Source: a virus (taxonomy: Duplodnaviria; Caudoviricetes). From it: a stretch of 43,248 nucleotides of DNA. This document shows, one piece after another, positions 12,827 to 40,398 of the stretch. The stretch covers positions 1 to 43,248 of IMG/VR virus record IMGVR_UViG_3300025053_000005; one strand, written 5' to 3'. The notes beneath the pieces were generated by a model, which worked only from the letters and a program-made list of their open reading frames with translations, made no database searches and was not told the origin of the DNA. Positions within the stretch are counted from its first letter, which is position 1. Every line of letters starts with the position of its first letter. The position numbers and the translations under genes were made by a program.

Positions 12827-13115
12827 TCCGACCGAAGCGTGGACTTGCCCGAGGTGCTACCAGATGAATGTGCGCTCATTCTGCGTTCGCTGTCTGGCGC
12901 CACGTCCGCATGCGCAGGCATTCCAGCAGGTTAGCACGACTGGGAGGCGCGCGATGTCGCGCATGTTCGCCATAAACATCGGCGCCACCTTCGACTTCGA
13001 ATTCGGCAGCAGCCTGGAGGCGGTCGGGAAAAAGCGGATTTACTGGCAGGGAAATAATCCACTTCGGCAGCTTTTCGGCAGCGTGACTTTTAGATCGTTA
13101 TTCCATGCTGTATAA
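12801..13115 (+). CDS. Small protein with a RanBP2-like zinc-finger motif
   Basis: WTCPRCYQMN....CVRCLAPRP; the C-terminus runs into the attP arm. Confidence 0.3.
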   Translation: MSGVFQSGSPTEAWTCPRCYQMNVRSFCVRCLAPRPHAQAFQQVSTTGRRAMSRMFAINIGATFDFEFGSSLEAVGKKRIYWQGNNPLRQLFGSVTFRSLFHAV

Positions 13116-13116
13116 A

Positions 13117-13144
13117 GCGGGTTCGAATCCCGCCTTCTCCGCCA
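13117..13144 (+). other. attP core: tRNA 3' end (T-arm plus acceptor strand, likely tRNA-Ser)
   Basis: GCGGGTTCGAATCCCGCCTTCTCCGCCA with discriminator G; no 5' half of a tRNA upstream; lies downstream of int. Confidence 0.85.
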
Positions 13145-13151
13145 GTATATG

Positions 13152-13183
13152 CGCCATAACTATTTGATAGTTATGGCGTTTTT
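13152..13183 (+). terminator. Intrinsic terminator after the attP tRNA fragment
   Basis: 12-bp stem CGCCATAACTAT/ATAGTTATGGCG followed by a T-run. Confidence 0.7.
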
Positions 13184-13225
13184 ATTTAAAGCAATGTATA
13201 TGCCATGACGCAAAATAGGCGCTAA

Positions 13226-13954
13226 TTAGCCCTGTTTCGGCACGGGCTGCCGAGAGTAGATAGCCTCTTTTTTTGCTCGTAAGTAAGCCAAATGCGCGTC
13301 CATTTCTGAATCAAAATACCCAAAACTGACACTTCCAACCCTTGCTTGGTACCTTGTTTTAAACCTGCTCTTGGATGTTACCCTTACTCCGGTAAGGAGT
13401 TTTCCGGGCTTTTTTTCTTTTTTGATAATACTTTTCTTTTTTTTCTTTGGTATATACCCGTCAGATTTAGACATTGCGCCCATAATTCCAGCCGATATTT
13501 TCTCAAGTACCTCAACACCCCATCTGTTCATGGCTAAATTTACTGCCAGGCAAACAAGTCGAACGTTTGATTTAATGTAGCCAATGTTTGAGTCTATTCT
13601 GTCCAGACTTGGAGCAAACGGACGATGCGGTCCTCTCTGTGTTGGTGCCGCGAATTCAAAATGAATTCCAGATATTTCACACCGCCAGCGACTTCTGCGT
13701 ATTAGGTCAGACATGGCTAATTCATCGAATTCGAATTCCATGTTTTTTGATTTTGATCTTCGTTTTGCGTCTTGAAGTAGCGTTGTAGCCCATGCAGGCA
13801 GTTCTATCTGCGAAGATCCGCGTATGTGTCTATTAAAGCAGTCGGTGGAACAAAACTTACCAACACCTCTAGTGCGTTTTTCTGTGGTCTCAAACGTGCG
13901 GCAACAGAAATGGCATTCAGCGATTATTAGTGGTTTTAGTTTTTTCATTGCCAT
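13226..13954 (-). CDS. HNH-like endonuclease with an N-terminal Zn finger and a C-terminal AP2-like domain
   Basis: CHFC...FCSTDC; CEISGI.F...PSLDRIDSNIGY..SNVRLVC..VN; TGV....RYQARVG...GYFDSEMDAHLAY; AT-rich. Confidence 0.7.
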   Translation of the reverse strand: MAMKKLKPLIIAECHFCCRTFETTEKRTRGVGKFCSTDCFNRHIRGSSQIELPAWATTLLQDAKRRSKSKNMEFEFDELAMSDLIRRSRWRCEISGIHFEFAAPTQRGPHRPFAPSLDRIDSNIGYIKSNVRLVCLAVNLAMNRWGVEVLEKISAGIMGAMSKSDGYIPKKKKKSIIKKEKKPGKLLTGVRVTSKSRFKTRYQARVGSVSFGYFDSEMDAHLAYLRAKKEAIYSRQPVPKQG

Positions 13955-15116
13955 TTGTAAATTTCCTTGCGAACATTTCTACCGCTTTTCCACCCGCATT
14001 TGGCGTGGCTTCCGGTATCCAGCGCCCGTAAACCCTGAAAATCATTGCCGTATCGGAGTGGCCCATCTGCTGGGCCAGCCAGATTGGTGATTCTCCGGCG
14101 GTCAGCATCATGCTGGCGTAAGTGTGGCGGGTCTGGTATTGCCTGCGGTAGAGTACGCCGGCCGTTCTCAGCGCTGGCACCCAGGCGCCGTGCCGGATCG
14201 GCTGGTCGCCTGTCCAGGGCTGGCCTGTTCTCGGATTGAGAAAGACGGCACCGCCTGCCAGAAAGCTGTGGGCTTTTTGCGCTTTTAGTGCTTCCAGTGC
14301 CGGGGCGAGTATTTTAACGTCCCGCGTGCCTTTTCTGGTTTTTGTGCCTTCTGCTTCGTCTGCAGCCTGTGTCTTTGCGCGGCTGACCCGGACAATGCCC
14401 CGAATCCAGTCTATATCGCCCCATTCCAGCGCCGCCAGCTCCGAGGTGCGTAGCCCTGACCAAAAGGCGAACTGGAACAGGTTACGGTGCTGCGGATCGC
14501 GGCAGGCGTCGAGGATCAGTTCCTGGTCTGCAGCGGTGAACGGATCCACATCGTCTACCGGCTTCGGCGCTTCCTTGCGGGCGAACTTCCAGCCGTAGAG
14601 CGGATTGGTTTCGATCAGTTCATCGTCAAGCGCATCCTGCAGCGCGGCGCGCAGCACGCTTTGCACGTTGGCCAGGCGTTTGTTTCCTGCTTTCTGACCT
14701 TCGCACCAGGTACGGATGTCAGCGCGTTTTAGTTCGGACAGGTAGATTCTGCCCAGTGCCGGGATGAGTGTGTGGTTGACGATCTTTCGATAGTCGTCCC
14801 AGGTGCTGCTCTTGAGGTGCTGGCGCTGTCGTTCCAGCCAGGTCTCAAGCCATGTTTCCAGCGCGTAGCCTGCGCCTTTGCGTTCCGAGAACAGGAATCG
14901 GCGGGAGGATTCCGGGAAGGTGACGGCATAATCGAAGGTGCCGCGCTCGATGGCGTGCAGAATGGCGGCGCGGTGCTGCTCGGCGCGTTTTAGATTCGCA
15001 GGGGTGGGGGCGAGCTTGATGCGCTCGCGGCAGCGGATGCCCTTGAGTTCGAAGTCGATCTGGATGCTGCTTTCCGAGACGGCGCGCACGCCAGTCCGTT
15101 GCCGTTTTCCACCCAC
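13917..15116 (-). CDS. int: Phage tyrosine integrase
   Basis: GTG start with GAGGGG RBS; arm-binding N-terminus GVRAVSESSIQIDF; SGLRTSEL, TKT, YQTRHTYAS, MGH, VY motifs. Confidence 0.95.
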   Translation of the reverse strand: MGGKRQRTGVRAVSESSIQIDFELKGIRCRERIKLAPTPANLKRAEQHRAAILHAIERGTFDYAVTFPESSRRFLFSERKGAGYALETWLETWLERQRQHLKSSTWDDYRKIVNHTLIPALGRIYLSELKRADIRTWCEGQKAGNKRLANVQSVLRAALQDALDDELIETNPLYGWKFARKEAPKPVDDVDPFTAADQELILDACRDPQHRNLFQFAFWSGLRTSELAALEWGDIDWIRGIVRVSRAKTQAADEAEGTKTRKGTRDVKILAPALEALKAQKAHSFLAGGAVFLNPRTGQPWTGDQPIRHGAWVPALRTAGVLYRRQYQTRHTYASMMLTAGESPIWLAQQMGHSDTAMIFRVYGRWIPEATPNAGGKAVEMFARKFTNGNEKTKTTNNR

Positions 15117-15274
15117 TGGTGATACCCCTCGATGTCGATCAACACATGGCCATCCGGCGCCCGGCGCCAGACGCGGCCTTCCATCCACACGCCGTCGCGG
15201 ATTTTCCCGCGAATGGCGTGCTCAGTATAGCCACTCTCGGCGGCGAACTGAATGATGGTTTTATAGCGCAGCAT
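14990..15274 (-). CDS. xis: Excisionase
   Basis: [42 protein letters not shown]; overlaps the int start; its ATG overlaps the intI TGA. Confidence 0.85.
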   Translation of the reverse strand: MLRYKTIIQFAAESGYTEHAIRGKIRDGVWMEGRVWRRAPDGHVLIDIEGYHQWVENGNGLACAPSRKAASRSTSNSRASAAASASSSPPPLRI

Positions 15275-16296
15275 CAGCCGATCCGGTCCAGCGGGCTCAT
15301 CACCCCATGCGCGCCACGATTGAGCACATGGGTATAAATCATCGTCGTGCTCACGTCGGCATGGCCCAGCAGCTCCTGCACGGTGCGGATGTCGTAACCG
15401 GACTCCAGCAAGTGCGTGGCGAATGAGTGGCGCAGGCTGTGGGGGTGGACCAGCTTGCCTATCCCGGCAGCCTGCGCAGCGGCCCGGACGGCGCGCTGGA
15501 TGTTGCGCTCGTTCCAGTGGTGGCGACGGTATGCGCCTGATCGCGGGTCGGTGCTGTAGCCGGGCGCGCAGAACAGGTATTGCCAGGCCCATTCTGCCGC
15601 TGCGCGCGGGTATTTTCGCTCGATGGCATCCGGTAGTTCCACGTCGGCATGGCCGGTCGCCAGATCAATGTCGTGCAAACGTCGCCGTGCGACCAGATGG
15701 TCGCGCAATTCGTCGCCCAGGCTGGACGGCAGCATGGTGATGCGGCCCTTGTTTCCCTTGCCTTCGCGGATGGTGATCTGGCCGCGCTCGATGTCGAGAT
15801 CCTTGACGCGCAAGCGCAGGCACTCCAGTAGGCGCATGCCGGTTCCGTACAGCAGTTTGATGACCAGGCCGTTCGTGCCGCTGACGTGGCGCAGTAAGGC
15901 CTGTATTTCGCGCTGGGTGAGCACGACTGGGAGTCGCTTCGAGACTTTCGCGCGGGTGACGCCATCCAGCCATGGTAGATCGATGCCCAGTACGTCACGG
16001 TAGAGGAACAGGATGGCGTGCATGGCCTGGTTCTGGGTGCTGGCGCTGACGTTGCGCTCGGTGGCCAGATCAGATAGGAAGGCTTCCACCTCCGGCGCGC
16101 CCATGTCGGACGGGTGGCGTTTGTGGTGGTAGAGGATGAAGCGCTTGGCCCAGTGGGTGTAGCTCTGCTCGGTGCGCAGGCTATAGTGTTTTACACGGAG
16201 AACTGCGCGCATGCGGTCGAGTAATTTTGGCGGCTGGGCAGGCGTGTCGTGTAACACGGCGCTTGGTGTCGCGTTTTGTTTTTCGATAGTGAGCAT
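15274..16296 (-). CDS. intI: Integron integrase
   Basis: KLLDRMR...[56 protein letters not shown]. Integron-specific insert [12 protein letters not shown]...WAWQYLF...RRHH. GGAGG RBS. Confidence 0.97.
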
Positions 16297-16318: not shown

Positions 16319-16363
16319 GTTCGGAATTAGGCGTAAAAAAGTGACGGTCAATTCTAGTTCGGC
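16319..16363 (+). other. attI site, crossover G|TT at 16357/16358
   Basis: GTTCGGC at 16357 is the exact reverse complement of cassette 1 R'' GCCGAAC. No hairpin. Core-like GTTCGGA and ATTAGGC upstream; 60 bp from the intI start. Confidence 0.8.
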
Positions 16364-16587
16364 GTCACTTCATCGCCCAGTGGGAACGTCCCTTCTTCTG
16401 GGTACTCGCTCAGATAGGCCACATGCTCGTAGTGCGTGGCCGTGCCGTCGTCGTCCATCACACCGCTTGCCGGGCAGTTGATGATGGTCATTTCAGTTTC
16501 CAGTTCGTCGGTGTAGTCGTGCGGCGCAATCACCAGCCCAACGGCCTCGGCCAAGTCCTTAATCTCTTTTCCGGTCAGTGTCAGCAT
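16354..16587 (-). CDS. Cassette 1 ORF, 77-aa acidic hypothetical protein
   Basis: GGAGAAGGA RBS region; fills the cassette; stop TAG supplied by attI. Confidence 0.75.
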   Translation of the reverse strand: MLTLTGKEIKDLAEAVGLVIAPHDYTDELETEMTIINCPASGVMDDDGTATHYEHVAYLSEYPEEGTFPLGDEVTPN

Positions 16588-16616
16588 TTCAGTCCTTCTC
16601 CTATGGTTACAGCGCC

Positions 16617-16679
16617 GCCGAACCCGGCGCTCAAGCGGGACGCGCGAAAAGCCGCGCGCCCCTTAGCTATGCGTTATGC
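16617..16679 (+). other. attC 1
   Basis: R'' GCCGAAC, L'' GCTCAAG with extra C, stem CGCGCG/CGCGCG, L' CTTAGC, R' GTTATGC. Confidence 0.93.
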
Positions 16680-16910
16680 GTCAAGGTTGTACTTCTCATC
16701 CAGCAAGCGCCGCGACTGCTCGCAGACCTTGCCACCATCAAGCCGCACAGTGCATTGCGACACCTTCGCCCGTAGGCCGCCCCGCCACGCACCACGCACA
16801 AACGGCAGCCAGTCGGCGGCAGCTTTGCGCGACGGGTACGCATTACCAACCCTCGTCCAGCCTTTTGCCGGGTGCATCACCATCGTGAAAAACATGGTTC
16901 GCTTTTCCAT
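16674..16910 (-). CDS. Cassette 2 ORF, 78-aa basic hypothetical protein (MEKRTMFF...)
   Basis: GGAGA RBS before ATG 16910; TAA inside the core site at 16674-16676. Confidence 0.7.
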   Translation of the reverse strand: MEKRTMFFTMVMHPAKGWTRVGNAYPSRKAAADWLPFVRGAWRGGLRAKVSQCTVRLDGGKVCEQSRRLLDEKYNLDA

Positions 16911-16927
16911 TTCTCCGTCTCCGCGCC

Positions 16928-16990
16928 GCATAACCCGGCATTCAAGAGGGACGGTCCGCAAGCGGCCCGCCCCTTAGCTCTGCGTTAGGC
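16928..16990 (+). other. attC 2
   Basis: R'' GCATAAC (complements GTTATGC at 16673), ATTCAAG...CTTAGC, R' GTTAGGC. Confidence 0.93.
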
Positions 16991-16991
16991 G

Positions 16992-17186
16992 TCAAGATTC
17001 AACCGCTTCAGCGGCCTCAGTGTTGTACACCCGACGCCAGAATCGGCACTCTTCAATCCATCCTTCACTACCCCTTTCAGCCTCAAGTGTTTCTGCGCGA
17101 GCTTTCCAGTAAGACGCACTGCCGTGCGAAAAAGCCAACGCCGCAGCCAGTATTCCAAATCCTATTGCCAGTTGTTCTGGGTTCAT
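16992..17186 (-). CDS. Cassette 3 ORF, 64 aa with an N-terminal hydrophobic segment
   Basis: AAGGGA RBS; MNPEQLAIGFGILAAALAFS. Confidence 0.65.
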   Translation of the reverse strand: MNPEQLAIGFGILAAALAFSHGSASYWKARAETLEAERGSEGWIEECRFWRRVYNTEAAEAVES

Positions 17187-17210
17187 TTTGTTTCCCTTTC
17201 TTAGATTCAC

Positions 17211-17271
17211 GCCTAACAAGGCATTCAAGCTGGACTTCGTTTCACTCAGCCCCTTAATTCAGTCGTTCAGC
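17211..17271 (+). other. attC 3
   Basis: R'' GCCTAAC (complements GTTAGGC at 16984), ATTCAAG...CTTAAT, R' GTTCAGC. Confidence 0.9.
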
Positions 17272-17272
17272 G

Positions 17273-17767
17273 TCAAAGCCACACGCCCTCATTACGTCCA
17301 TCCGTCAAGAGCACCCGCCTGTTCTCGGCAAACTGATCTGAAATCCAGTCAGGTATTGCGCCGTCGAAAGCATCGCGCAGTTGTCCCACGGTGAAGCCAA
17401 CTACGCCGCCGCTCGGCGCTACCGCCATGTCAAATCCGGCGCGCAAACAGGCAGACAGCATGTCGCCGAATCGACCGCGCACGACTTCAACTCCGTGCCT
17501 GTTCTCTCGCTCGAACTCATAGCGGTTGTCCCAGAGGTAGGTGTCCACGCGCGAGCTTGCGGACTCGTAGTGCTCGTGCCAGCCCTTGCCGTACCGAACA
17601 CAACTGTCCCAGTCTTCGACGGTCTCCAAGCCGTTGCAGACAACCCAGTAAATGCAGCCCTCTACCTCTGCCAACAGCTTCTTCTTCCGCGCCGGAGTCA
17701 GGTCGGTAAAGCTGCGCGCCAGGCCGAGACTCATTTGCTTCCAGCGGTCGTGTTGCAGTTCGTTCAT
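17273..17767 (-). CDS. Cassette 4 ORF, 164-aa hypothetical protein
   Basis: AAAGGA RBS; fills the cassette. Confidence 0.8.
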   Translation of the reverse strand: MNELQHDRWKQMSLGLARSFTDLTPARKKKLLAEVEGCIYWVVCNGLETVEDWDSCVRYGKGWHEHYESASSRVDTYLWDNRYEFERENRHGVEVVRGRFGDMLSACLRAGFDMAVAPSGGVVGFTVGQLRDAFDGAIPDWISDQFAENRRVLLTDGRNEGVWL

Positions 17768-17788
17768 GTCATCGTCCTTTCAGTTGCC

Positions 17789-17855
17789 GCCGAACAATTC
17801 GTCCAACCGGACGTGCCGATAAAGCCCGGCACGCCGGTTAACTCAATCGTTAGCC
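17789..17855 (+). other. attC 4
   Basis: R'' GCCGAAC (one mismatch to GTTCAGC at 17265), GTCCAACCGG...CCGGTTAAC, R' GTTAGCC. Confidence 0.92.
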
Positions 17856-18067
17856 ACCATCCGCGCTGCATACACTCTCAGGCAGCGTTTACAGGCATTT
17901 GCCAGCGGCAAGTTAATCGTCATCCGGTAGCCTTCTGGTGCTGGTCTGCCGCAAATCGGGTCGCTGATGTATCCAGCCTTAATCAAATGCTGATCGTCCC
18001 GACCTTCTCCAGCCTCGTAGGCAAGGTGCAATTTCTGCCCGCCCTTAACTTGTGCATAAATCATCAT
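17843..18067 (-). CDS. Cassette 5 ORF, 74-aa putative Zn-binding protein
   Basis: GGAGG RBS; H...C...CKRC pattern; its stop lies in attC 4. Confidence 0.7.
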   Translation of the reverse strand: MMIYAQVKGGQKLHLAYEAGEGRDDQHLIKAGYISDPICGRPAPEGYRMTINLPLANACKRCLRVYAARMVAND

Positions 18068-18077
18068 TTCCTCCAGT

Positions 18078-18164
18078 GGCTAACATTACGTTCAACCTTC
18101 GCTCCCTTTGGTCGCCTGACCTGCCGCAAAAGGCGCGGCAGTCAGGGTTAACTCTACGTTATGC
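18078..18164 (+). other. attC 5
   Basis: R'' GGCTAAC (complements GTTAGCC at 17849), GTTCAACC...GGTTAAC, R' GTTATGC; longer branched central region. Confidence 0.9.
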
Positions 18165-18332
18165 CCCTACGTCCGGCGGCTTGATCTTGTGCCGACGTTT
18201 CAGGGCTTCCTCAATCAGCACGGCCCGGCTCTCCGGCTGTTCGTCCATCCACGCCAGCAGCCAGCGCGGAAGCTTCAGGCTCACCGGCACCTTAACAAGT
18301 GCCGGCGGCTTTTTAGGCGCACCGGCAACCAT
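18159..18332 (-). CDS. Cassette 6 ORF B, 57-aa ribbon-helix-helix/CopG-like protein
   Basis: MVAGAPKKPPALVKVPVSLKLPRWLLAWMDEQPESRAVLIEEALKRRHKIKPPDVGA; ATG overlaps the ORF A stop (TAATG); not in the ORF track. Confidence 0.7.
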   Translation of the reverse strand: MVAGAPKKPPALVKVPVSLKLPRWLLAWMDEQPESRAVLIEEALKRRHKIKPPDVGA

Positions 18333-18541
18333 TACGAATTAAACCCGGCCAACTGCCCAACGGTAGGCGCCTGCACCATCGAAACATCAACCCACTGAAT
18401 CCGTTGATTAGGGTTTTTGTCCTCAATTGTTGCATCGATCACGCCAACCTCACGCACACCCAACTCCTGTACGCGGTACATGGTCGCGTCAACTTCATGG
18501 TTCATAACAACTAAATCAAATACTGCTGGCAGCTTTTTCAT
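18332..18541 (-). CDS. Cassette 6 ORF A, 69-aa hypothetical protein
   Basis: GAGGTG RBS; downstream of the cassette promoter. Confidence 0.7.
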   Translation of the reverse strand: MKKLPAVFDLVVMNHEVDATMYRVQELGVREVGVIDATIEDKNPNQRIQWVDVSMVQAPTVGQLAGFNS

Positions 18542-18580
18542 GATCTACACCTCTCGCAATTTGGTTCAGGCCAATCCTTC

Positions 18581-18631
18581 ACCATAATTACAGTATATAC
18601 CTTATTTCAATTAAAGTCAATACCATAATTA
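18581..18631 (-). promoter_or_regulatory. Sigma70 promoter in cassette 6 with flanking direct repeats
   Basis: Minus strand TTGACT (18620-18615), 17 bp, TATACT (18597-18592); ACCATAATTA at 18581 and 18622. Confidence 0.8.
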
Positions 18632-19281
18632 TCGGGGCATAACCCGGCGCTCAACTCGAACTGCGCGAAGAGGCCGCGCAGTCGGTTAGCTCTACGTTCG
18701 GCGATTTCCTTGGGGTAGTTGTGGACGGTGTTTCTTGCCATCAGTTGGCTGCGGCTGATTAATTCCAGATTGCCGATGTCGCAGTTGTGCCGGTTGCCGT
18801 CCTTGAAAACCAGGGCCATGCCGCGAGGCGGGTATTCGCCATGAGCCAGTTTCCAGTTCCAGCGGTGGAGCGGAACCCACGCTCTGGCGCCCGGAGATGT
18901 CTTGATGTCGATATAGCCTTCCGAGTTGACGCGCAGGCTGCCGACTTCGCGCCGGTTGGGTGGGGTAGTGCCGGGCTTGAAGCGGGTTTCGTGCGATCTG
19001 CCACCGGAGTCCCATGACAAGCCCTTGTTCCAGGGCGTCATGCCGGGCTGAAAGCGGGTTTTCTCGCCGCGCTTGCCGTCGGTGCGGCCTGCTGCTGGGC
19101 TGGACATATAGGCTGGCGACTTGCGCAGGCCCATCGCTTTGGCTTTGCTGATGACCTGTTTTTCACGCAGGCCCATGGAGGATGCCAGCCGGGCGGTATG
19201 CTCAACAGGAAAGCGGCGCTGCAGTTCTGCTGTGTCGGATGCCGTCCAGGTGTGGCGGTTCATTTTAGCTTTCATCTTCAC
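18607..19281 (-). CDS. Phage HNH endonuclease-like protein; last ~30 aa read through attC 6
   Basis: TRFQPG..PWNKG repeats; HRWNW...HG..P..M.LVFKDGN..NCDI.NLELISR..LM.RN.VHNYP. Confidence 0.75.
   Translation of the reverse strand: MKMKAKMNRHTWTASDTAELQRRFPVEHTARLASSMGLREKQVISKAKAMGLRKSPAYMSSPAAGRTDGKRGEKTRFQPGMTPWNKGLSWDSGGRSHETRFKPGTTPPNRREVGSLRVNSEGYIDIKTSPGARAWVPLHRWNWKLAHGEYPPRGMALVFKDGNRHNCDIGNLELISRSQLMARNTVHNYPKEIAERRANRLRGLFAQFELSAGLCPDNYGIDFN
18637..18702 (+). other. attC 6
   Basis: GGGGCATAAC complements GTTATGCCCC at 18158 over 10 bp; GCTCAAC...CTGCGCG/CGCGCAG...GTTAGC; R' GTTCGGC. Confidence 0.92.
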
Positions 19282-21900: not shown

Positions 21901-21942
21901 AGTATAGCCATACTAAACAACCAATGTCAAGCAGCACTAAAC
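21901..21942 (-). promoter_or_regulatory. Leftward early promoter PL with two operators
   Basis: Minus strand TTGACA (21930-21925), 18 bp, TATACT (21906-21901); operators GTATAGCCATACTAAAC (21902) and GTCAAGCAGCACTAAAC (21926). Confidence 0.8.
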
Positions 21943-22757: not shown

Positions 22758-23150
22758 TTATTGTGTCTCGCTGCGCTGCTGAAAACTTAGATTCTTTGAT
22801 GCCTCGCGCGCCATGTTAAGCATCGCGTCCCTTATCTGCGGAACGGCTGCCCTGTAACCGAGCAGCAGTTCAACTTCATCGTTTGGCGGGGGTTCCGTTA
22901 TTTTGAACTGGCTCTTTAGTGGCTCCTTGAGCGCGCTTGAATAATCGTTCTTACCCAAGATCAGCCAATCCAGCGAGAACTTGAATTCTTGCTGTAGTTT
23001 AAGCAGGCGCGGTGTCGGTGGAATAAGTTCATCATTCTCCCATTGCGAAACCATTGCTTTCGTGACCTCGCATATCTCCCCAAAGCTCGATTGTGAGAGC
23101 TTGTGTTCTTTCCTGATGCTCAATAAACGTTTGCCAATAGTCATCTGCAT
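22758..23150 (-). CDS. CI-like XRE repressor without a peptidase domain
   Basis: IGKRL..IRK...LSQ..FG....VTKAMVSQWE...SLDWLILG; divergent from cro. Confidence 0.85.
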   Translation of the reverse strand: MQMTIGKRLLSIRKEHKLSQSSFGEICEVTKAMVSQWENDELIPPTPRLLKLQQEFKFSLDWLILGKNDYSSALKEPLKSQFKITEPPPNDEVELLLGYRAAVPQIRDAMLNMAREASKNLSFQQRSETQ

Positions 23151-23153
23151 ATT

Positions 23154-23219
23154 GTATAGCCCAACTAAATCGCCGTGGTTTAGTGGTGCTTGACATTCAA
23201 TGTTTAGCATGGTTAAACT
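23154..23219 (+). promoter_or_regulatory. OR region: three 17-bp operators and PR
   Basis: Operators at 23154, 23178 and 23202 (24-bp spacing; GTWTAG-N5-CTAAAC-like); TTGACA (23190), 18 bp, TAAACT (23214). Confidence 0.8.
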
Positions 23220-23226
23220 ATGCCTC

Positions 23227-23451
23227 ATGAAGATAAATCAAATAGCGGGATTGGCTGGTGGCGTTGTTGCGCTATCGACCGCGCTCGGCCTCAGCAGGGG
23301 TGCCGTGTCGCAATGGGACAAGGTTCCCGTCGATAAAGTGCTGAGGGTTTGCGACCTCACAAGCTGGCAAGTCACCCCCCACGAACTGCGCCCCGACATC
23401 TACCCCAACCCATCCGACGGCCTGCCCGTCGATCACCAGGAGGCGGCTTAA
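23227..23451 (+). CDS. Cro-like (YdaS-type) regulator
   Basis: AGG...LS..LGLSRGAVSQW..VP...VTPHELRPDIYP. Confidence 0.85.
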   Translation: MKINQIAGLAGGVVALSTALGLSRGAVSQWDKVPVDKVLRVCDLTSWQVTPHELRPDIYPNPSDGLPVDHQEAA

Positions 23452-34918: not shown

Positions 34919-36658
34919 ATGGCATACGAAGACATCGCGGCAGACGTAACAATCGACAACGTAACCAAGGTCATCGACTACGTTGGTAATGCCCACGGCG
35001 CGGCTGGCGCGGGGTACTACACAGGTATCTATTTGCATCGCTGGCTAGGCAGCTTGGCAGATGATGCGCAAGCCTCGACAGGCTCTGGCGACTACATGGA
35101 CATGACCAAGCTCACGCCATCGAGTCGAAACGGTATTGACCAGATTATCCAGATGCTCAACGGCTACACGCTGACTGTGACCTTGATCGAGCACTTGTAC
35201 GACTGCTCGATCATCATGAACGGTGGCGACGACATCTACGATGGTTTCACACTGATCACGGCAGAAGGCTGCGACATGCAGATCGTGCAGAATGGCGCGA
35301 TCGTCGTCAATGACTTCTGGAACACGATTCCGAGCGGTCAAACTACCAAGGGATTGAACCGCGACCTGACGAAAGGTATCGCTGCTCGCTTCCTGCTCAA
35401 GGTGCGCAGCGCCGGTGTAGACATCGACTTGCGCCGGGTGCTAGGTCAGACCCGCGTGTATGGATACACCAACTCAGAGTTCTTGGTCAACGGCTCCGCT
35501 CGTGGCAATAACGTGATCGCGTTGAACTATGCGGCGGACAACAACAACTTGACAGCTGCCGGCACGGTCGCGACCTGGACGGACATCACCCTGACGACAG
35601 AAGGCTACAACGCCATCGACGTAGATGCCAACGCTGTCAATGAGTACTACTACAGCAAGTGGAATGTCAACAAGCCTACACGCACAATCAATAACTTCTA
35701 TGAGCGCATCAAGTATCTCCAGCGCCAAGGCTCGGCAGAAACCTTGTACGGCTTGAATGGTGAACTGTTCCGTGGCGTGACCCACCAGATCGCTTACAGC
35801 ACGTTGACAGGTTTATTCGACGACAGCAACCCAGTGACGTTCTCTAACGGCGCAACGGCGCAGATTCTGGCCGACGATGGATCGGGCGTCATGTGGGTAC
35901 AGCTGCTGACCGGATCACCCCCTGTTGCCACCAATACCATTTCACAGACGGTGCCGGACGCTGCATCGGCCACCATCACCACAATGACTGCGCGCCCACT
36001 GAGCTATCCGGCTTGCGGACAATCGACCGGCTCTGCTCTGCTGGGTGCCTATGGCTTCGGCATTGAGACGGACGACCTGACCAGTAATGACAAGCTTATT
36101 GCTCTGGATGGCGTCGAGCGCACCCCGCCAAACAACCAGACGTTCTACGTCAATGGTGTGGTCAGCACAGAAGACTACGTGTTAGTTGGCCTGAAAAATG
36201 GCGGTGGCACAGACATCGATGCAGGGCAGTTCCTGCTGAATACCACTTTGGTTGGTGCGGACGCTTCGGTCGTTGTCAAGGTTGGCACAGAGACTCCAGG
36301 CACCGGCACGCAGAGTGCGACAGATACCCCGTCTACAGGCACGATTCGCGTTGAGGGTGATGATGGGGTGTACCACCGCGTCGCCTATACCGGGATTACG
36401 ATTGGCGCATCGACAATGACCTTTACTGGCTGTACGGGCGCACCTGCGGCGACAGCGAACAACGACGTGTACATCAGCTACATCGACAAACTGGCGGACG
36501 CTACCACGCTGTCCTACCAAGCCACCTACCACTCATCACGCAACCTGTTCGCTCGGGTACGGGATGGTAAGACGACCCCGATCAAGACTTTCGAGGGTAC
36601 AGGCACATTCGGCTCTGCCGGTGGTTCTATCTCTGTGTCCCGCCAGACTGACGAGTAA
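34919..36658 (+). CDS. Large hypothetical protein, likely virion-associated
   Basis: 579 aa, Thr/Gly/Asp-rich, in the late operon. Confidence 0.75.
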   Translation: MAYEDIAADVTIDNVTKVIDYVGNAHGAAGAGYYTGIYLHRWLGSLADDAQASTGSGDYMDMTKLTPSSRNGIDQIIQMLNGYTLTVTLIEHLYDCSIIMNGGDDIYDGFTLITAEGCDMQIVQNGAIVVNDFWNTIPSGQTTKGLNRDLTKGIAARFLLKVRSAGVDIDLRRVLGQTRVYGYTNSEFLVNGSARGNNVIALNYAADNNNLTAAGTVATWTDITLTTEGYNAIDVDANAVNEYYYSKWNVNKPTRTINNFYERIKYLQRQGSAETLYGLNGELFRGVTHQIAYSTLTGLFDDSNPVTFSNGATAQILADDGSGVMWVQLLTGSPPVATNTISQTVPDAASATITTMTARPLSYPACGQSTGSALLGAYGFGIETDDLTSNDKLIALDGVERTPPNNQTFYVNGVVSTEDYVLVGLKNGGGTDIDAGQFLLNTTLVGADASVVVKVGTETPGTGTQSATDTPSTGTIRVEGDDGVYHRVAYTGITIGASTMTFTGCTGAPAATANNDVYISYIDKLADATTLSYQATYHSSRNLFARVRDGKTTPIKTFEGTGTFGSAGGSISVSRQTDE

Positions 36659-36660
36659 GC

Positions 36661-37038
36661 ATGTTCTACGTTCTAACGCTAGGCGATGCGGTAATGGTGA
36701 CGGAATCAAACCCGTACTCATTGCCGCTCGCGCTTTGGTCTATCCACGAAGTTGACGGGACTATCCCTGATCTGAATACTCATGCGTGGGATTTCCAGAG
36801 CGATGGGTTCGTAAAGTTCGGCGGGAATCTATCCCGCGTGGATTTTATCTTGCGCTTCACCGCCTCCGAGTGGGAAGCGGCGGCCACGTCATCCGACATC
36901 AACATCAAGCAGGGCATGGCATTGATTCTCGCCGCTGAATACATCGACGTAGCAGATATGCGCACCATGATGCTGGTCGGCTATTGCGCCATGATCGGAC
37001 TGATCCTTGATTCCCGCGTGGCGGAGATACTGGCATGA
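36661..37038 (+). CDS. Hypothetical protein resembling fibre-associated chaperones
   Basis: LSRVDFILRFT..E...AAEYIDV.D...GLI...R.AEILA. Confidence 0.6.
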   Translation: MFYVLTLGDAVMVTESNPYSLPLALWSIHEVDGTIPDLNTHAWDFQSDGFVKFGGNLSRVDFILRFTASEWEAAATSSDINIKQGMALILAAEYIDVADMRTMMLVGYCAMIGLILDSRVAEILA

Positions 37039-38897
37039 CTGCGCCCGTTTACGCGACCGACTTAGCTACCACGACTGCCGACACCACCAAAGGAACGATC
37101 TATCGGCAAGATTCGACCTCGGCGCTAACCACTACCGGATGCCTCGGTACGCTAACGCATGGCGAGCCTACAGGTAGCACGGCGGGTGGACTTCCTACGC
37201 AAGATACGGACTACTTTATTCTTGGGGTAGCCACTGCCGACAAGTCTTTCAATGCTACCGGTGTAGGCGGCTTGGGTGCAGGTACAACCAACGCAGCCTC
37301 GCTACCTACTGATGGCGCATTCCTATTCTGGCAGATGTTCACTTGCCCGAATTCGGTATCAGCTAAAGCCAGCGGGGGCATTCAGTGCCTTGTGGGTAGC
37401 TCTGTAGCCAACTACTACAGGTTCTATGTGGATGGTGACGATACGCACCCCTACGGTGGCTGGAAATGCAACCCGATCAACCCCTCGGTAACGCCTAGCG
37501 CGACACAGGGTACGCCCACAGGGACCAACCAGTATTTCGGTGTGGCGTACAACGTGGACAACGCGGTAGCCAAGGGAAATCCCGCTGCATTGGGCGCGAT
37601 CCGCTTTGGGCGCTGTTATCTTCTGTGTACCGCAGGTGACGTTACCAACGGCTACGCCACGTTCACCGGGGCGGGTACATTCAACGACTACAACGACGGC
37701 ACGAATGGCTGGAACCGTCTCGGCCTGATGCAGCCGGATGGCGGTTCTGCCTACAAGATGCAGGGGCTGTTCCAGATGGGGTCAGCCGCAACAGCGGTTG
37801 ATTTCCGCGACAGCAACAAGACCATCAACATCCAGGCAACACCGTTCGTCACAGCCAATTTCAACACCTTTGAGGTTGTGAATGCCGCAAGTCGGGTAGA
37901 TTGGACAGGCATCACCATCAACTCGCTCGGCACCGTGTCGCGAGGCCGTTTCATCATGACGGACAATGCAGACGTCAACAAAGACAACTGCACCTTTAAT
38001 GACTTGGGTACTTTCTCGTATCTATCGGGGGCCACTGTTCTGAATACAACGTACCGCCGCTGCCTACAAGTCACTTTGGGCGGAGCTACGCTGACGGCGG
38101 TAAAGTTCGATAAGTCTGACGCTGCTATCGCACTGGCTTGTGGCTCTTCGGTATCCACCATAAGTAATACAGACTTTATTTCATCAGGCACAGGTCACGC
38201 CATTGAGATCACAGGTGGCACAAGTCACACCCTGACAGGCATCACCTTCACAGGCTACGCCAGCGGCAATGGTAGCACCGGCAACGAAGCCGTCTATGTG
38301 AACATCGGCGCTGGGGAAGTGACCATCTACGCCGACTCGACATTCAGCTACCGCACTGCCGGGGCGACTGTGACCGTCATCGCTGGCTCAGTGGCTTTCC
38401 GGGTCGATGCACGAAAGTCTGACGGCACACTGGTTTCCGGCGCAAGCATCGCCCTGTTCGCCAAGGACGCGACCGGCGACTTGCCGTATCAGGACACAGT
38501 GACAATCACCAACAGTGGCACGACGGCGACTGTATCGCATACCGGCCACAACATGCTGACCAATGACAAGGTGCTGATCGAAGGCGCGAGCCTGATGGCG
38601 AACAACGGCGTTTACACGATCACCTACATCAGCGCCAACAGCTACAGTTACACGATGGGTAGCACGCCCGGCAGCGACCCCACAGGCACGATCAAGGCGA
38701 CCTGGACTGCGCTGTACGAGGCCAACGTCACGGCGGGCTTCCTGAGTGCTTCGCGGGTATTCTCGGTAAACCAGCCCGTCACTGGTTGGGCGCGCAAATC
38801 GACTTCCGCACCGTATTACCAGACAGCGCTTGTGTCCGGTGAGATTGATTCATCGGCGGGGCTTCTCCTGACCGCACTTTTATTGCCGGACGAATAA
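37035..38897 (+). CDS. Large beta-rich fibre/decoration-like protein with an FCCH-like repeat
   Basis: 620 aa; beta-helix-like middle; TATVSHTGHNMLTNDKVLIEGA...NGVYTIT. Confidence 0.75.
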   Translation: MTAPVYATDLATTTADTTKGTIYRQDSTSALTTTGCLGTLTHGEPTGSTAGGLPTQDTDYFILGVATADKSFNATGVGGLGAGTTNAASLPTDGAFLFWQMFTCPNSVSAKASGGIQCLVGSSVANYYRFYVDGDDTHPYGGWKCNPINPSVTPSATQGTPTGTNQYFGVAYNVDNAVAKGNPAALGAIRFGRCYLLCTAGDVTNGYATFTGAGTFNDYNDGTNGWNRLGLMQPDGGSAYKMQGLFQMGSAATAVDFRDSNKTINIQATPFVTANFNTFEVVNAASRVDWTGITINSLGTVSRGRFIMTDNADVNKDNCTFNDLGTFSYLSGATVLNTTYRRCLQVTLGGATLTAVKFDKSDAAIALACGSSVSTISNTDFISSGTGHAIEITGGTSHTLTGITFTGYASGNGSTGNEAVYVNIGAGEVTIYADSTFSYRTAGATVTVIAGSVAFRVDARKSDGTLVSGASIALFAKDATGDLPYQDTVTITNSGTTATVSHTGHNMLTNDKVLIEGASLMANNGVYTITYISANSYSYTMGSTPGSDPTGTIKATWTALYEANVTAGFLSASRVFSVNQPVTGWARKSTSAPYYQTALVSGEIDSSAGLLLTALLLPDE

Positions 38898-39121
38898 TGG
38901 CCTACGACTCTGAATACGATGGCCGGATGATCGCTGCCACTCGCAATATCGAGGGGTTGTTCGTGGCGGTAAACCATTTCGAGCAGAAAAGAGCGGACGA
39001 TGCCGCACGGGTAGAATCCATGATCGCCACGATCACCCAGCTTACCCAGCAGGTCGTCGCCCTTAATCAAGCCGTGGCCCTGCTTAAAGCGCAATCGTTG
39101 TACTGCGGGGTGACTGAGTGA
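38897..39121 (+). CDS. Small coiled-coil protein
   Basis: ITQLTQQVVALNQAVALL heptads. Confidence 0.6.
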   Translation: MAYDSEYDGRMIAATRNIEGLFVAVNHFEQKRADDAARVESMIATITQLTQQVVALNQAVALLKAQSLYCGVTE

Positions 39122-40398
39122 TCTCCATACACTGGCCCAGCAAGGTGATCAGCGTGCCTCGCGCAGACATGCTGCTGGTGCAATCGGCCCCTACTGAAAT
39201 ACGAGAACTTGATGTAGAAGATTTTCGCCTTGCCTTGAAGAGCCTCGAAGATGATCCGATCGGGATGGCCTATGCAGATACCCACCGGCACAATCCGCCC
39301 GTTACCGTGGGCGGCGTTACGCTTGCCCGTGTGATCGAGATTGTCAACGGCTACACGGTGACGTTTGAAGATGGCCAATACGCGGTCAACATCGTGGGCG
39401 CGAACAGCAACATAGGCGACCGGGTAAACGTCAACCAGGTATCGGTGCGCTCCGCTAACTCGGCAGGGCTTACCCAGATCAGAACCGTGGAGGCTGGCGC
39501 TTTCGGCGGGGTAGTGGCACTGGACGTGACGCACGGATACCCAGGAACGGGCTACGTTGACGGCATCCCCATTGGAACCCATGCCCGACCCAGCAACAAC
39601 GTGGCAGACGCGGCGTTCATCGCGGAATTGCGCGGTATTGAGGTTATCGTCGTACACGGCGAAATGGTGCTGACATCAGGGGATGACCTGAGTGGCTATA
39701 CGATTCGCGGCGAGAACGCTATTACCACGATGGTAACAATCGAAGCTGGGGCGAACGTAAGTAATTGTCAGTTCGAGGACATGATCATCTCCAATTCGGT
39801 GCTGGATGGCTACGCCTACACCAAGCACTGCTCCGTCAATAACGTCGACGGAATAGAGGGCTATGTGGAACTGGCAATGTTGTCCGGCAACCTCAGTCTC
39901 GCCGGCACGCAAAACACGTATTTCATTTCGTGCAAGTCAGGGTGCGTCGGGCTTGGCACAGCTGATCTTCCAGTGCTGAGCATGGCAGGGTCTGGTCGGC
40001 ATGTAGCGTTCCGAGGATACGAAGGGCCAATAAAAATCACCAACAGCACCGACCCCGACAACACTATCTGTATCGACGTCTCGAGCGGAGCCACTATCAC
40101 AATCGACCCATCCTGCACGGCTGGTAATATCTACGTCGGGGGGATCGCTCACCTCCCGCCAACTGCCCACGGCATGACCGTGCATCTTGACCGGCAACTG
40201 GACCAGAAGAGCATCGCTGATGCCGTATGGAGCCATGCCAGTGCCGCCCAGATGATCACCCGCCTGGCCGAAGCCTGGGGCCGTCTGGGGCTGGATGTCA
40301 GCAAACCGCTGGTCACCGGACAAACCAGCATCACCTTCGGCGACATCGCCATGGCGCTCACAGGTGACGCCACCAGCACCACGGTCACCAGGCAGTAA
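39118..40398 (+). CDS. Hypothetical beta-helix-like structural protein
   Basis: 426 aa; SIADAVWSH motif near the C-terminus. Confidence 0.7.
   Translation: MISIHWPSKVISVPRADMLLVQSAPTEIRELDVEDFRLALKSLEDDPIGMAYADTHRHNPPVTVGGVTLARVIEIVNGYTVTFEDGQYAVNIVGANSNIGDRVNVNQVSVRSANSAGLTQIRTVEAGAFGGVVALDVTHGYPGTGYVDGIPIGTHARPSNNVADAAFIAELRGIEVIVVHGEMVLTSGDDLSGYTIRGENAITTMVTIEAGANVSNCQFEDMIISNSVLDGYAYTKHCSVNNVDGIEGYVELAMLSGNLSLAGTQNTYFISCKSGCVGLGTADLPVLSMAGSGRHVAFRGYEGPIKITNSTDPDNTICIDVSSGATITIDPSCTAGNIYVGGIAHLPPTAHGMTVHLDRQLDQKSIADAVWSHASAAQMITRLAEAWGRLGLDVSKPLVTGQTSITFGDIAMALTGDATSTTVTRQ

Follow-up and report, generated by a model that had tools for sequence, protein, structure and literature searches.

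We analysed the 43,248 bases that make up the whole of the virus record IMGVR_UViG_3300025053_000005 (Duplodnaviria; Caudoviricetes), hereafter the window, and found in it a complete integron, composed of an integron integrase gene (intI), its attachment site (attI) and six gene cassettes with seven open reading frames (ORFs), sitting between the early-left genes and the excisionase and integrase genes (xis-int) of a phage. With head, tail, lysis, primase, cI/cro-like and integrase genes, the window is, as judged from its gene content, a 43-kb temperate phage carrying a full integron. All seven cassette ORFs are on the minus strand and none is on the top strand of the cassette recombination sites (attC). 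The best explanation, to which we give roughly three chances in four, is that the cassette genes all occupy the attC bottom strand, facing the same way as intI and xis-int, and that the element is part of a phage integron lineage whose likely role is to load accessory genes of phages into an operon under repressor control. Judged by its recombination parts this is a true integron, but probably not one expressed from the usual cassette promoter (Pc).

The attC top strand is the plus strand

attC sites were located with a heuristic detector of our own, used with a score cutoff of 15 and loosened once to catch attC2. Six sites were found on the plus strand within 2.1 kb (Table 1), which are all the sites scoring at least 15 in the window, while the minus strand contained no attC site at a score of 15 or more. 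Shuffling of the window yielded, at the same score, no site in nine out of ten shuffles and two sites in the remaining one. The sites contain the R'', L'', L' and R' boxes together with the extrahelical base by which an integron is recognized. Placing the extra C at position 4 of L'' on the plus strand gave the best L-box pairing in four of the six sites and a tie in the other two. The bottom strand contained more G than C in all six sites and gave the more stable fold in five. The R'' box was complementary to the core site of its own cassette at 7/7 positions in five cassettes and at 6/7 in cassette 4; the match between core and R'' is symmetric and was dropped as a strand test, so natural variants were used to decide which strand is the top one.

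Locus L019 equals locus L018 plus one cassette, placed exactly at the G|TT of attI beside intI and with its attC distal. When pairs of loci sharing a cassette were compared, the attC upstream of the start codon was the more similar one in all ten informative pairs (11 pairs, one uninformative). For cassette 4 compared with locus L142, the right attC scored 83% and the left one 55%, against a background median of 53%, and sharing extended up to G|TT. The extra C in L'', the attI beside intI and the sister-phage insertions at G|TT thus indicate that the attC top strand is the plus strand. A sequence-only reading of the window had named this strand from the extra C and the position of attI, and the L018/L019 insertion agrees with it. 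The attC top strand is opposite to the coding strand of intI; in this the window differs from the layout of Treponema-type arrays, which have intI co-oriented with canonical cassettes.

In the five single-gene cassettes a Shine-Dalgarno sequence lies inside the 10-29 bp gap between R'' and the ATG, which agrees with the earlier proposal that most ribosome-binding sites stand beside R''; this space is too short for a promoter. Six of the seven ORFs stop at the core site or at most 8 bp from it. The exception, 18332-18541, stops in the middle of its cassette and is coupled to the next ORF, so that the claim that every ORF stops at or near the core applies to the other six. The stop codons of ORF5 (17843-17845) and ORF1 (16354-16356) are supplied by the neighbouring site, and the C-termini of both proteins would change on reshuffling. 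Codon scores made the minus frame the best of six for all ORFs except ORF3. Homologues were found for ORF1 (43), ORF4 (43), ORF3 (4), ORF2 (six viral loci at 80-97%), ORF5 (one at 78%) and the 57-aa ORF (two, with 48% to L001 and 76% to L038), and by this comparison the six ORFs with homologues are real genes. The inversion of all seven ORFs relative to attC is confirmed.

The cassette genes are likely read from the phage left operon

Leftward from the repressor region, the minus strand carries small early genes, an HNH gene, the seven small ORFs, intI, the excisionase and the phage integrase. The top matches of a promoter scan were found at 21930-21901 (11/12) and at 18620-18592 (10/12), the two places for which promoters had been proposed, one ahead of the left operon (PL) and one in cassette 6. 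Cassette 6 is the only cassette with a promoter inside, cassettes 1-5 having none. No promoter consensus at 9/12 or better occurred on the plus strand from position 13000 through the array, by a consensus scan that cannot exclude a Pc. The window has the organization of a lambda-like temperate phage, with a cI/cro switch, PL and PR promoters with shared operators, and xis-int ending the left operon. PL is credible because its operator is common to PR, and the shared operator makes it likely that CI controls the cassettes, intI and xis-int together. Transcription of the cassette genes from PL by read-through is also likely. The promoter of cassette 6 can probably be dispensed with, since cassettes 5-6 are missing at this place from a sister phage that has the same HNH junction. 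A comparable bottom-strand promoter was present in only 2 out of 86 viral cassette intervals, and 42 of 48 inverted viral cassettes left 41 bp or less before the start codon.

Comparison of loci showed new cassettes entering at attI, which confirms that the newest cassette is the farthest from the promoter. A steep expression gradient along the array is nevertheless unlikely, because xis and int follow further along the same strand, past the array. According to a crude gene caller, the genes past the array share the strand of intI in 26 of 27 viral and 7 of 18 bacterial loci. Among 15 sampled loci, nine had a phage integrase no more than three genes further on, in seven of them on the same strand. 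A close relative (L002:740-9960; IntI 86%) has its integron in a late operon, between the terminase large subunit and portal genes, and the rule is therefore that the array faces the same way as a phage operon, most often the early one. The co-orientation put forward in the sequence-only reading stands, but its restriction to the early operon does not hold in general.

The integrase aligns over its full length to the structure with PDB code 2A3V, and both the catalytic motifs and the integron-specific insertion are present. attI adjoins the 5' end of intI, and the use of its G|TT is shown by L018 versus L019. No LexA box was found in the 60 bp before intI in the window; a strict LexA box occurred in 1 of 49 viral and 6 of 76 bacterial loci, a feature that does not separate the two groups. 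intI overlapped the next gene in 23 of 47 viral versus 8 of 71 bacterial loci.

In the mechanism that we propose, CI would repress PL in the lysogen, and upon infection or induction a single leftward transcript would extend from the early genes across the cassettes and intI to xis and int, taking the place of both Pc and the LexA-controlled intI promoter (PintI). As this transcript would include intI, IntI would be made just when phage DNA replicates. The array would act as a loading dock, not as a ranked expression queue. The inversion would also insulate host and phage cassette pools, because a host cassette taken up by the phage would lie antisense to PL, and a phage cassette taken up by the host antisense to Pc.

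Inverted cassettes are the rule in a lineage of phage integrons

A scan for IntI provided 59 viral loci and 80 bacterial loci, the latter being the best of 591 from 4 of the 64 parts of the collection and hence a limited bacterial sample. Arrays were found in 32 viral and 38 bacterial loci. When both sets were passed through one pipeline, the 92 viral intervals comprised 61 inverted, 1 canonical, 4 with both, 15 with none and 11 unclean, and the 137 bacterial intervals comprised 6, 69, 8, 29 and 25, respectively. In nine of the inverted calls of this first scoring, the stop was only just within the overlap permitted. With a stricter rule, for which the duplicates L023 and L055 were dropped, inverted and canonical cassettes numbered 48 vs 3 in viruses (of 109 intervals, 58 unscored) and 2 vs 30 in bacteria (of 156, 124 unscored); counted by locus, the figures were 23 vs 2 and 2 vs 21. 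Fisher p-values on such counts overstate the difference because related loci are not independent. The three viral cassettes called canonical each have a plausible, better-scoring ORF on the minus strand, one of them with a methyltransferase-like motif, and they look like shadow ORFs.

In a tree of 126 IntI sequences, 43 viral rows, including the IntI of the window, formed one clade without a bacterial row in the sample; its SH-like approximate likelihood ratio (SH-aLRT) support in a quick search was 90, below the tool's mark of 95. The attI sites of this clade are compact, and in most cases the start codon is 60 or about 81 bp away. Within one pipeline, the scored cassettes were mostly inverted in viral arrays and mostly canonical in bacterial ones. 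Taken over these sequences, the inverted layout is a signature of the lineage and not a quirk. It is not universal among phage integrons, since Rctr41k and M16-3 differ.

Some individual loci deserve a mention. In a Gallionella chromosomal integron (L095:6600-7838) the first two cassette positions are inverted, one with a gene of a phage family (phrog_2045), and phage-to-host cassette traffic is possible there. In a complete provirus (L046 / G001:C1), the only tyrosine recombinase is an IntI of Gallionella type, located at one edge and adjoined by an inverted array, and the opposite edge bears an attC-like site and a methyltransferase gene; integration of this provirus into a host integron and capture of the host intI are both possible. 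Loci L029 (two attC) and L015 (one) have sites also 3' of intI in the same orientation, as if an intI-attI module had been inserted into an existing array. The first two cassettes of L033 are identical 613-bp tandem copies, and both have a promoter consensus on the top strand. We also saw as many as nine inverted cassettes in viral or phage-like contigs (L164-L168, L140, L142, L143) whose available sequence has no intI.

Cargo and homologues point to a phage-specific cassette pool

The cargo scan of viral arrays covered 88 of 104 cassette ORFs (duplicates and some short rivals were dropped), of which 30 matched phage families in PHROGs. Among these matches were five DNA methyltransferases, three Mom-like proteins, four 3'-phosphoadenosine-5'-phosphosulfate (PAPS)-reductase-like proteins and one queuine tRNA-ribosyltransferase-like protein. 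Pfam assigned DNA-modification families to 9 of 88 viral vs 0 of 82 bacterial cassette ORFs, two sets that were selected by different rules. Bacterial cargo consisted of immunity proteins, GNAT, barstar and similar. An anti-restriction role of the viral cargo is likely, given these families.

No cassette DNA was found in common with the bacterial set. ORF4 was examined in 21 of the 23 loci found, the window's own contig and one fragment being left out: four of the 21 were inverted cassettes (two distinct sequences) and none was canonical, and the gene occurred without attC in four close homologues (62-75%) and 13 distant ones. ORF2 was an inverted cassette in five out of six loci and lacked attC in one; the single ORF1 locus was an inverted cassette, and the single ORF5 locus was without attC. 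The cassette-2 gene was found with several unrelated attC bodies as well as without any. A single-sequence scan of viral contigs with ORF4 detected no locus and an alignment-based scan detected one. The structure predicted for ORF4 had a predicted local distance difference test (pLDDT) score of 85.7 and no match in PDB or BFVD, and Atlas searches with ORF4 and ORF1 gave no usable match. Orientation, IntI clade, cargo and homologues that are never canonical agree with the distinct, phage-adapted pool that had been envisaged for these cassettes, and a phage-specific cassette pool is likely.

Near-identical phages differ by whole cassettes

Loci L040 and L043 have flanks that are 99.9-100% identical and different arrays, and L021 and L022 differ both at attI and within the array. 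In a sister-phage contig (run X8), cassette 4 matches, 430 other bases then replace cassettes 5-6, and the match resumes exactly at 18696; another contig of the same run has a different first cassette behind a related attI. Sequence comparison thus gives good support for the cassettes being separate mobile units, which come and go at G|TT among phages that are otherwise nearly the same. An excised form of this exact array was not found among the contigs matching the region, contigs being prone to drop rare variants.

Alternative explanations

Several observations weigh against an inverted, PL-driven phage integron, in addition to the late-operon relative, the limited bacterial sample, the unscored intervals, the relatedness of loci, the clade support and the unequal cargo selection reported above. 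Minimum free energy folds mostly miss the R-box-paired form of attC. In five of ten pairs of co-travelling genes and sites, the 'left' site was not the adjacent one, a weak site having been missed. For cassette-2 homologues in five arrays, the right attC was the better match in two, the left one in one, one was a tie and one was unscored; in the sister phage, cassette 4 is accompanied by another attC. From these cassette-2 and cassette-4 mismatches it appears that attC bodies are also exchanged or acquired repeatedly, always upstream of the gene. Three weak terminator-like sites are found on the minus strand between PL and the array, which disfavours read-through. A bacterial interval left out of the cargo count (L092) resembles a methyltransferase, and the seven ORFs of the window gave no family match in Pfam, PHROGs, NCBIfam or PADLOC, which bears on a counter-defence role of the window's own cargo.

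The terminator-like sites would also suit a reading in which the inversion is real but the genes are transcribed, possibly in the lysogen, mainly from the cassette-6 promoter or from attC-internal promoters instead of PL. That promoter matches the consensus at 10/12 and is upstream of all other cassettes, and antisense promoters occur in Vibrio cassettes (10.1101/2023.11.21.568050, in the part available). We consider this unlikely in view of the scarcity of similar promoters among viral cassette intervals (2/86) and of the sister phage without cassettes 5-6 at the same place; constant read-through from cassette 6 would, moreover, be expected to reach xis-int. Bacterial cassettes caught by chance, silent or self-expressed in the manner of inverted toxin-antitoxin cassettes and without any phage pool, could be imagined given that phages with pieces of host integrons are known (PMC9892861, accessible part), that in M16-3 the cassette genes run opposite to intI and a LexA box is present, and that cassette 6 has its own promoter. 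Such chance capture is, however, highly improbable and largely refuted: five of the six cassettes have no room for a promoter, the homologues of cassettes 1, 2, 4 and 5 are inverted cassettes or genes without attC and never canonical, there is no cassette DNA in common with the bacterial set, and 30 of 88 viral cassette ORFs fall in phage families.

Even less credible is that the array is a relic with an inactive IntI, the differences between phages arising from homologous recombination or from host integrases. Five cassette-2 homologues do lie in arrays without intI in the available sequence (up to 3 kb on each side), so host IntI may carry out much of the traffic, but in the window intI is intact with its catalytic motifs, attI is conserved across the clade, and near-identical phages differ exactly at G|TT. 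Least probable of all is a misreading of strands, with the minus strand being the attC top strand, the ORFs canonical and intI merely co-oriented with the array. The core/R'' match is blind to strand, the bulge test was tied in two of six sites, and Rctr41k has precisely such a layout, with six attC-like sites on the intI strand vs one on the opposite strand. Against this, the extra C is on the left arm of the plus strand, the same scan reads bacterial arrays as canonical, the site adjoining intI is not an attC and is where the extra cassette of L019 enters with its attC distal, and the right attC of ORF4 is the one in common with L142 up to G|TT (83% vs 55%).

Genome context of the integron

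The features of the window are listed in Table 1. The family likeness of the HNH gene stops exactly at the last core site (18696) and its frame continues through attC6; the sister phage has the same HNH junction at 18696. The array seems to have entered a core-like site in the 3' end of the HNH gene. A search for relatives with an uninterrupted HNH gene yielded one distant locus only.

Table 1. Coordinates of the integron and of the phage features discussed in the text
Feature	Position	Strand	Remarks
attI	16325..16363	+	compact phage type; crossover G16357|T16358, 60 bp from intI start; conserved in phage relatives
attC1	16617..16679	+	heuristic attC scan, box pairing
attC2	16928..16990	+	recovered after one loosening of the scan
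attC3	17211..17271	+	weakest fold of the six
attC4	17789..17855	+	found together with ORF4 in L142/L143
attC5	18078..18164	+	heuristic attC scan, box pairing
attC6	18637..18702	+	last crossover G18696|T18697; junction common to sister phage
intI	15274..16296	-	340 aa, intact; TIGR02249, 460 bits vs cutoff 265
Cassette 1 ORF (ORF1)	16354..16587	-	77 aa, acidic; stops 3 bp into attI
Cassette 2 ORF (ORF2)	16674..16910	-	78 aa; stop is the TAA of the core site
Cassette 3 ORF (ORF3)	16992..17186	-	64 aa; hydrophobic N-terminus
Cassette 4 ORF (ORF4)	17273..17767	-	164 aa; conserved family, no known fold matched
Cassette 5 ORF (ORF5)	17843..18067	-	74 aa; stops in the attC4 spacer
Cassette 6 second ORF	18159..18332	-	57 aa; by eye presumably a ribbon-helix-helix DNA binder; no family match
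Cassette 6 first ORF	18332..18541	-	69 aa; based on Shine-Dalgarno sequence, promoter and codon score
Cassette 6 internal promoter	18584..18632 (promoter 18620-18592)	-	TTGACT-17-TATACT, 10/12; within an imperfect palindrome, a likely operator
HNH gene	18607..19281	-	phrog_1891; C-terminus compared with L014
Excisionase gene	14990..15274	-	phrog_9668, E 1e-23; ATG overlaps intI stop codon (gap -1)
Phage integrase gene (int)	13917..15188	-	PF00589, PF12167, phrog_1; ORF-finder start, true start probably later
PL-like promoter	21901..21930	-	TTGACA-18-TATACT, 11/12; flanking operator sequence same as PR
CI-like repressor gene	22758..23228	-	phrog_8, phrog_4, PF01381; ORF-finder start
PR-like promoter ahead of cro-like gene	23190..23219	+	promoter scan; flanks nearly identical to those of PL

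Elsewhere in the window, four ORFs (579, 125, 620 and 426 aa) between the portal and capsid genes, at 34919-40395, form an unusual 5.5-kb insert in the head module, and nothing above cutoff was found for them in Pfam, PHROGs or NCBIfam. Inverted repeats and a strong hairpin at 13011-13213, where the lysis genes give way to the end of the left operon, mark a candidate attP or terminator region. GC skew did not locate a replication origin in the window, which would bear on whether the attC bottom strand may be the template of the lagging strand; according to the accessible part of PMC5371416, such an arrangement favours recombination.

Comparison with known integrons and significance

Canonical integrons, such as class 1 integrons and the Vibrio cholerae superintegron (whose IntI is PDB 2A3V), resemble the window in the IntI family, in an attI upstream of intI, in attC sites with R''-L''-L'-R' boxes and an extrahelical base, in insertion at G|TT and in mostly one promoterless gene per cassette. 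The window departs from them in having its genes on the bottom strand, with the ribosome-binding site and start beside R'' and a stop often provided by the TAA of the core site, in intI being coupled to xis in a phage operon, and in that neither Pc nor a LexA box was found. The consulted portion of PMC8946536 describes attC bottom-strand selectivity as ensuring genes oriented with Pc, whereas in the window the same selectivity would ensure the opposite orientation. In bacteria, inverted cassettes with their own promoter (parDE3 in V. cholerae; symE/sRNA-Xcc1 in Xanthomonas) likewise have genes antisense to Pc, and their own promoter has a counterpart in cassette 6; they are a minority in the sources as far as available, while in the window all genes are inverted and five of the six cassettes have no promoter.

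A survey of 10,705 phages (Qi et al. 2023, PMC9892861, of which part was available) reported three complete integrons, one In0 and 17 clusters of attC sites without an integron integrase (CALINs), with methyltransferase cargo; its phage-borne integrons include those of Vibrio Va_90-11-286_p16 and Shewanella M16-3 and a P1 class 1 mosaic. These phages are similar to the window in carrying integron parts in a phage genome, and their cargo likewise includes orphan DNA methyltransferases. The survey presents its complete integrons as pieces of host chromosomes or of class 1 integrons, and neither a phage-only IntI clade nor systematic inversion appears in the available main text; the IntIs of these integrons are 43-56% identical to that of the window, which, with an intact intI, is not a CALIN. 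The phage Rctr41k (GenBank KX853513) has an IntI-like gene, annotated xerD and 46% identical, co-oriented with phage genes and accompanied by attC-like sites. These sites are, unlike those of the window, mostly on the gene strand, with canonical cassettes on both sides of intI, and Rctr41k thereby reaches the same co-orientation without inversion. In this genome (L176, 4680-9434) the xerD gene is surrounded by attC-like sites of ~128 bp on the gene strand. A description of a phage integron lineage with inverted cassettes was not found in the full-text literature, a search in which most subscription papers were not covered.

Integrons are treated as bacterial devices in which strand-specific recombination serves to direct captured genes away from a Pc. 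In the window this chemistry would be rewired for the phage, with genes reversed and apparently dependent on the phage repressor switch across a whole lineage. This suggests a gene-swapping pool on the phage side, including DNA-modification genes with a likely anti-restriction role, which would mirror the anti-phage cassettes of host integrons (10.1101/2025.06.18.660453, in its accessible portion). More tentatively, and with somewhat greater doubt than confidence, we propose that phages run a mirror-image integron, in which their own accessory genes would become cassettes, repeatedly and independently, by acquiring an attC before the start codon, and anti-restriction and other counter-defence genes would be stocked against the anti-phage cassettes of the host. 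The inversion would be a firewall, the recombinases being compatible and each pool silent in the platform of the other. Genes with and without attC at 70-97% identity are natural before-and-after pairs for how cassettes form, and the mostly uncharacterised small cassette proteins make a candidate list for counter-defence. If true, the mirror-image integron would open the origin of gene cassettes to direct testing.

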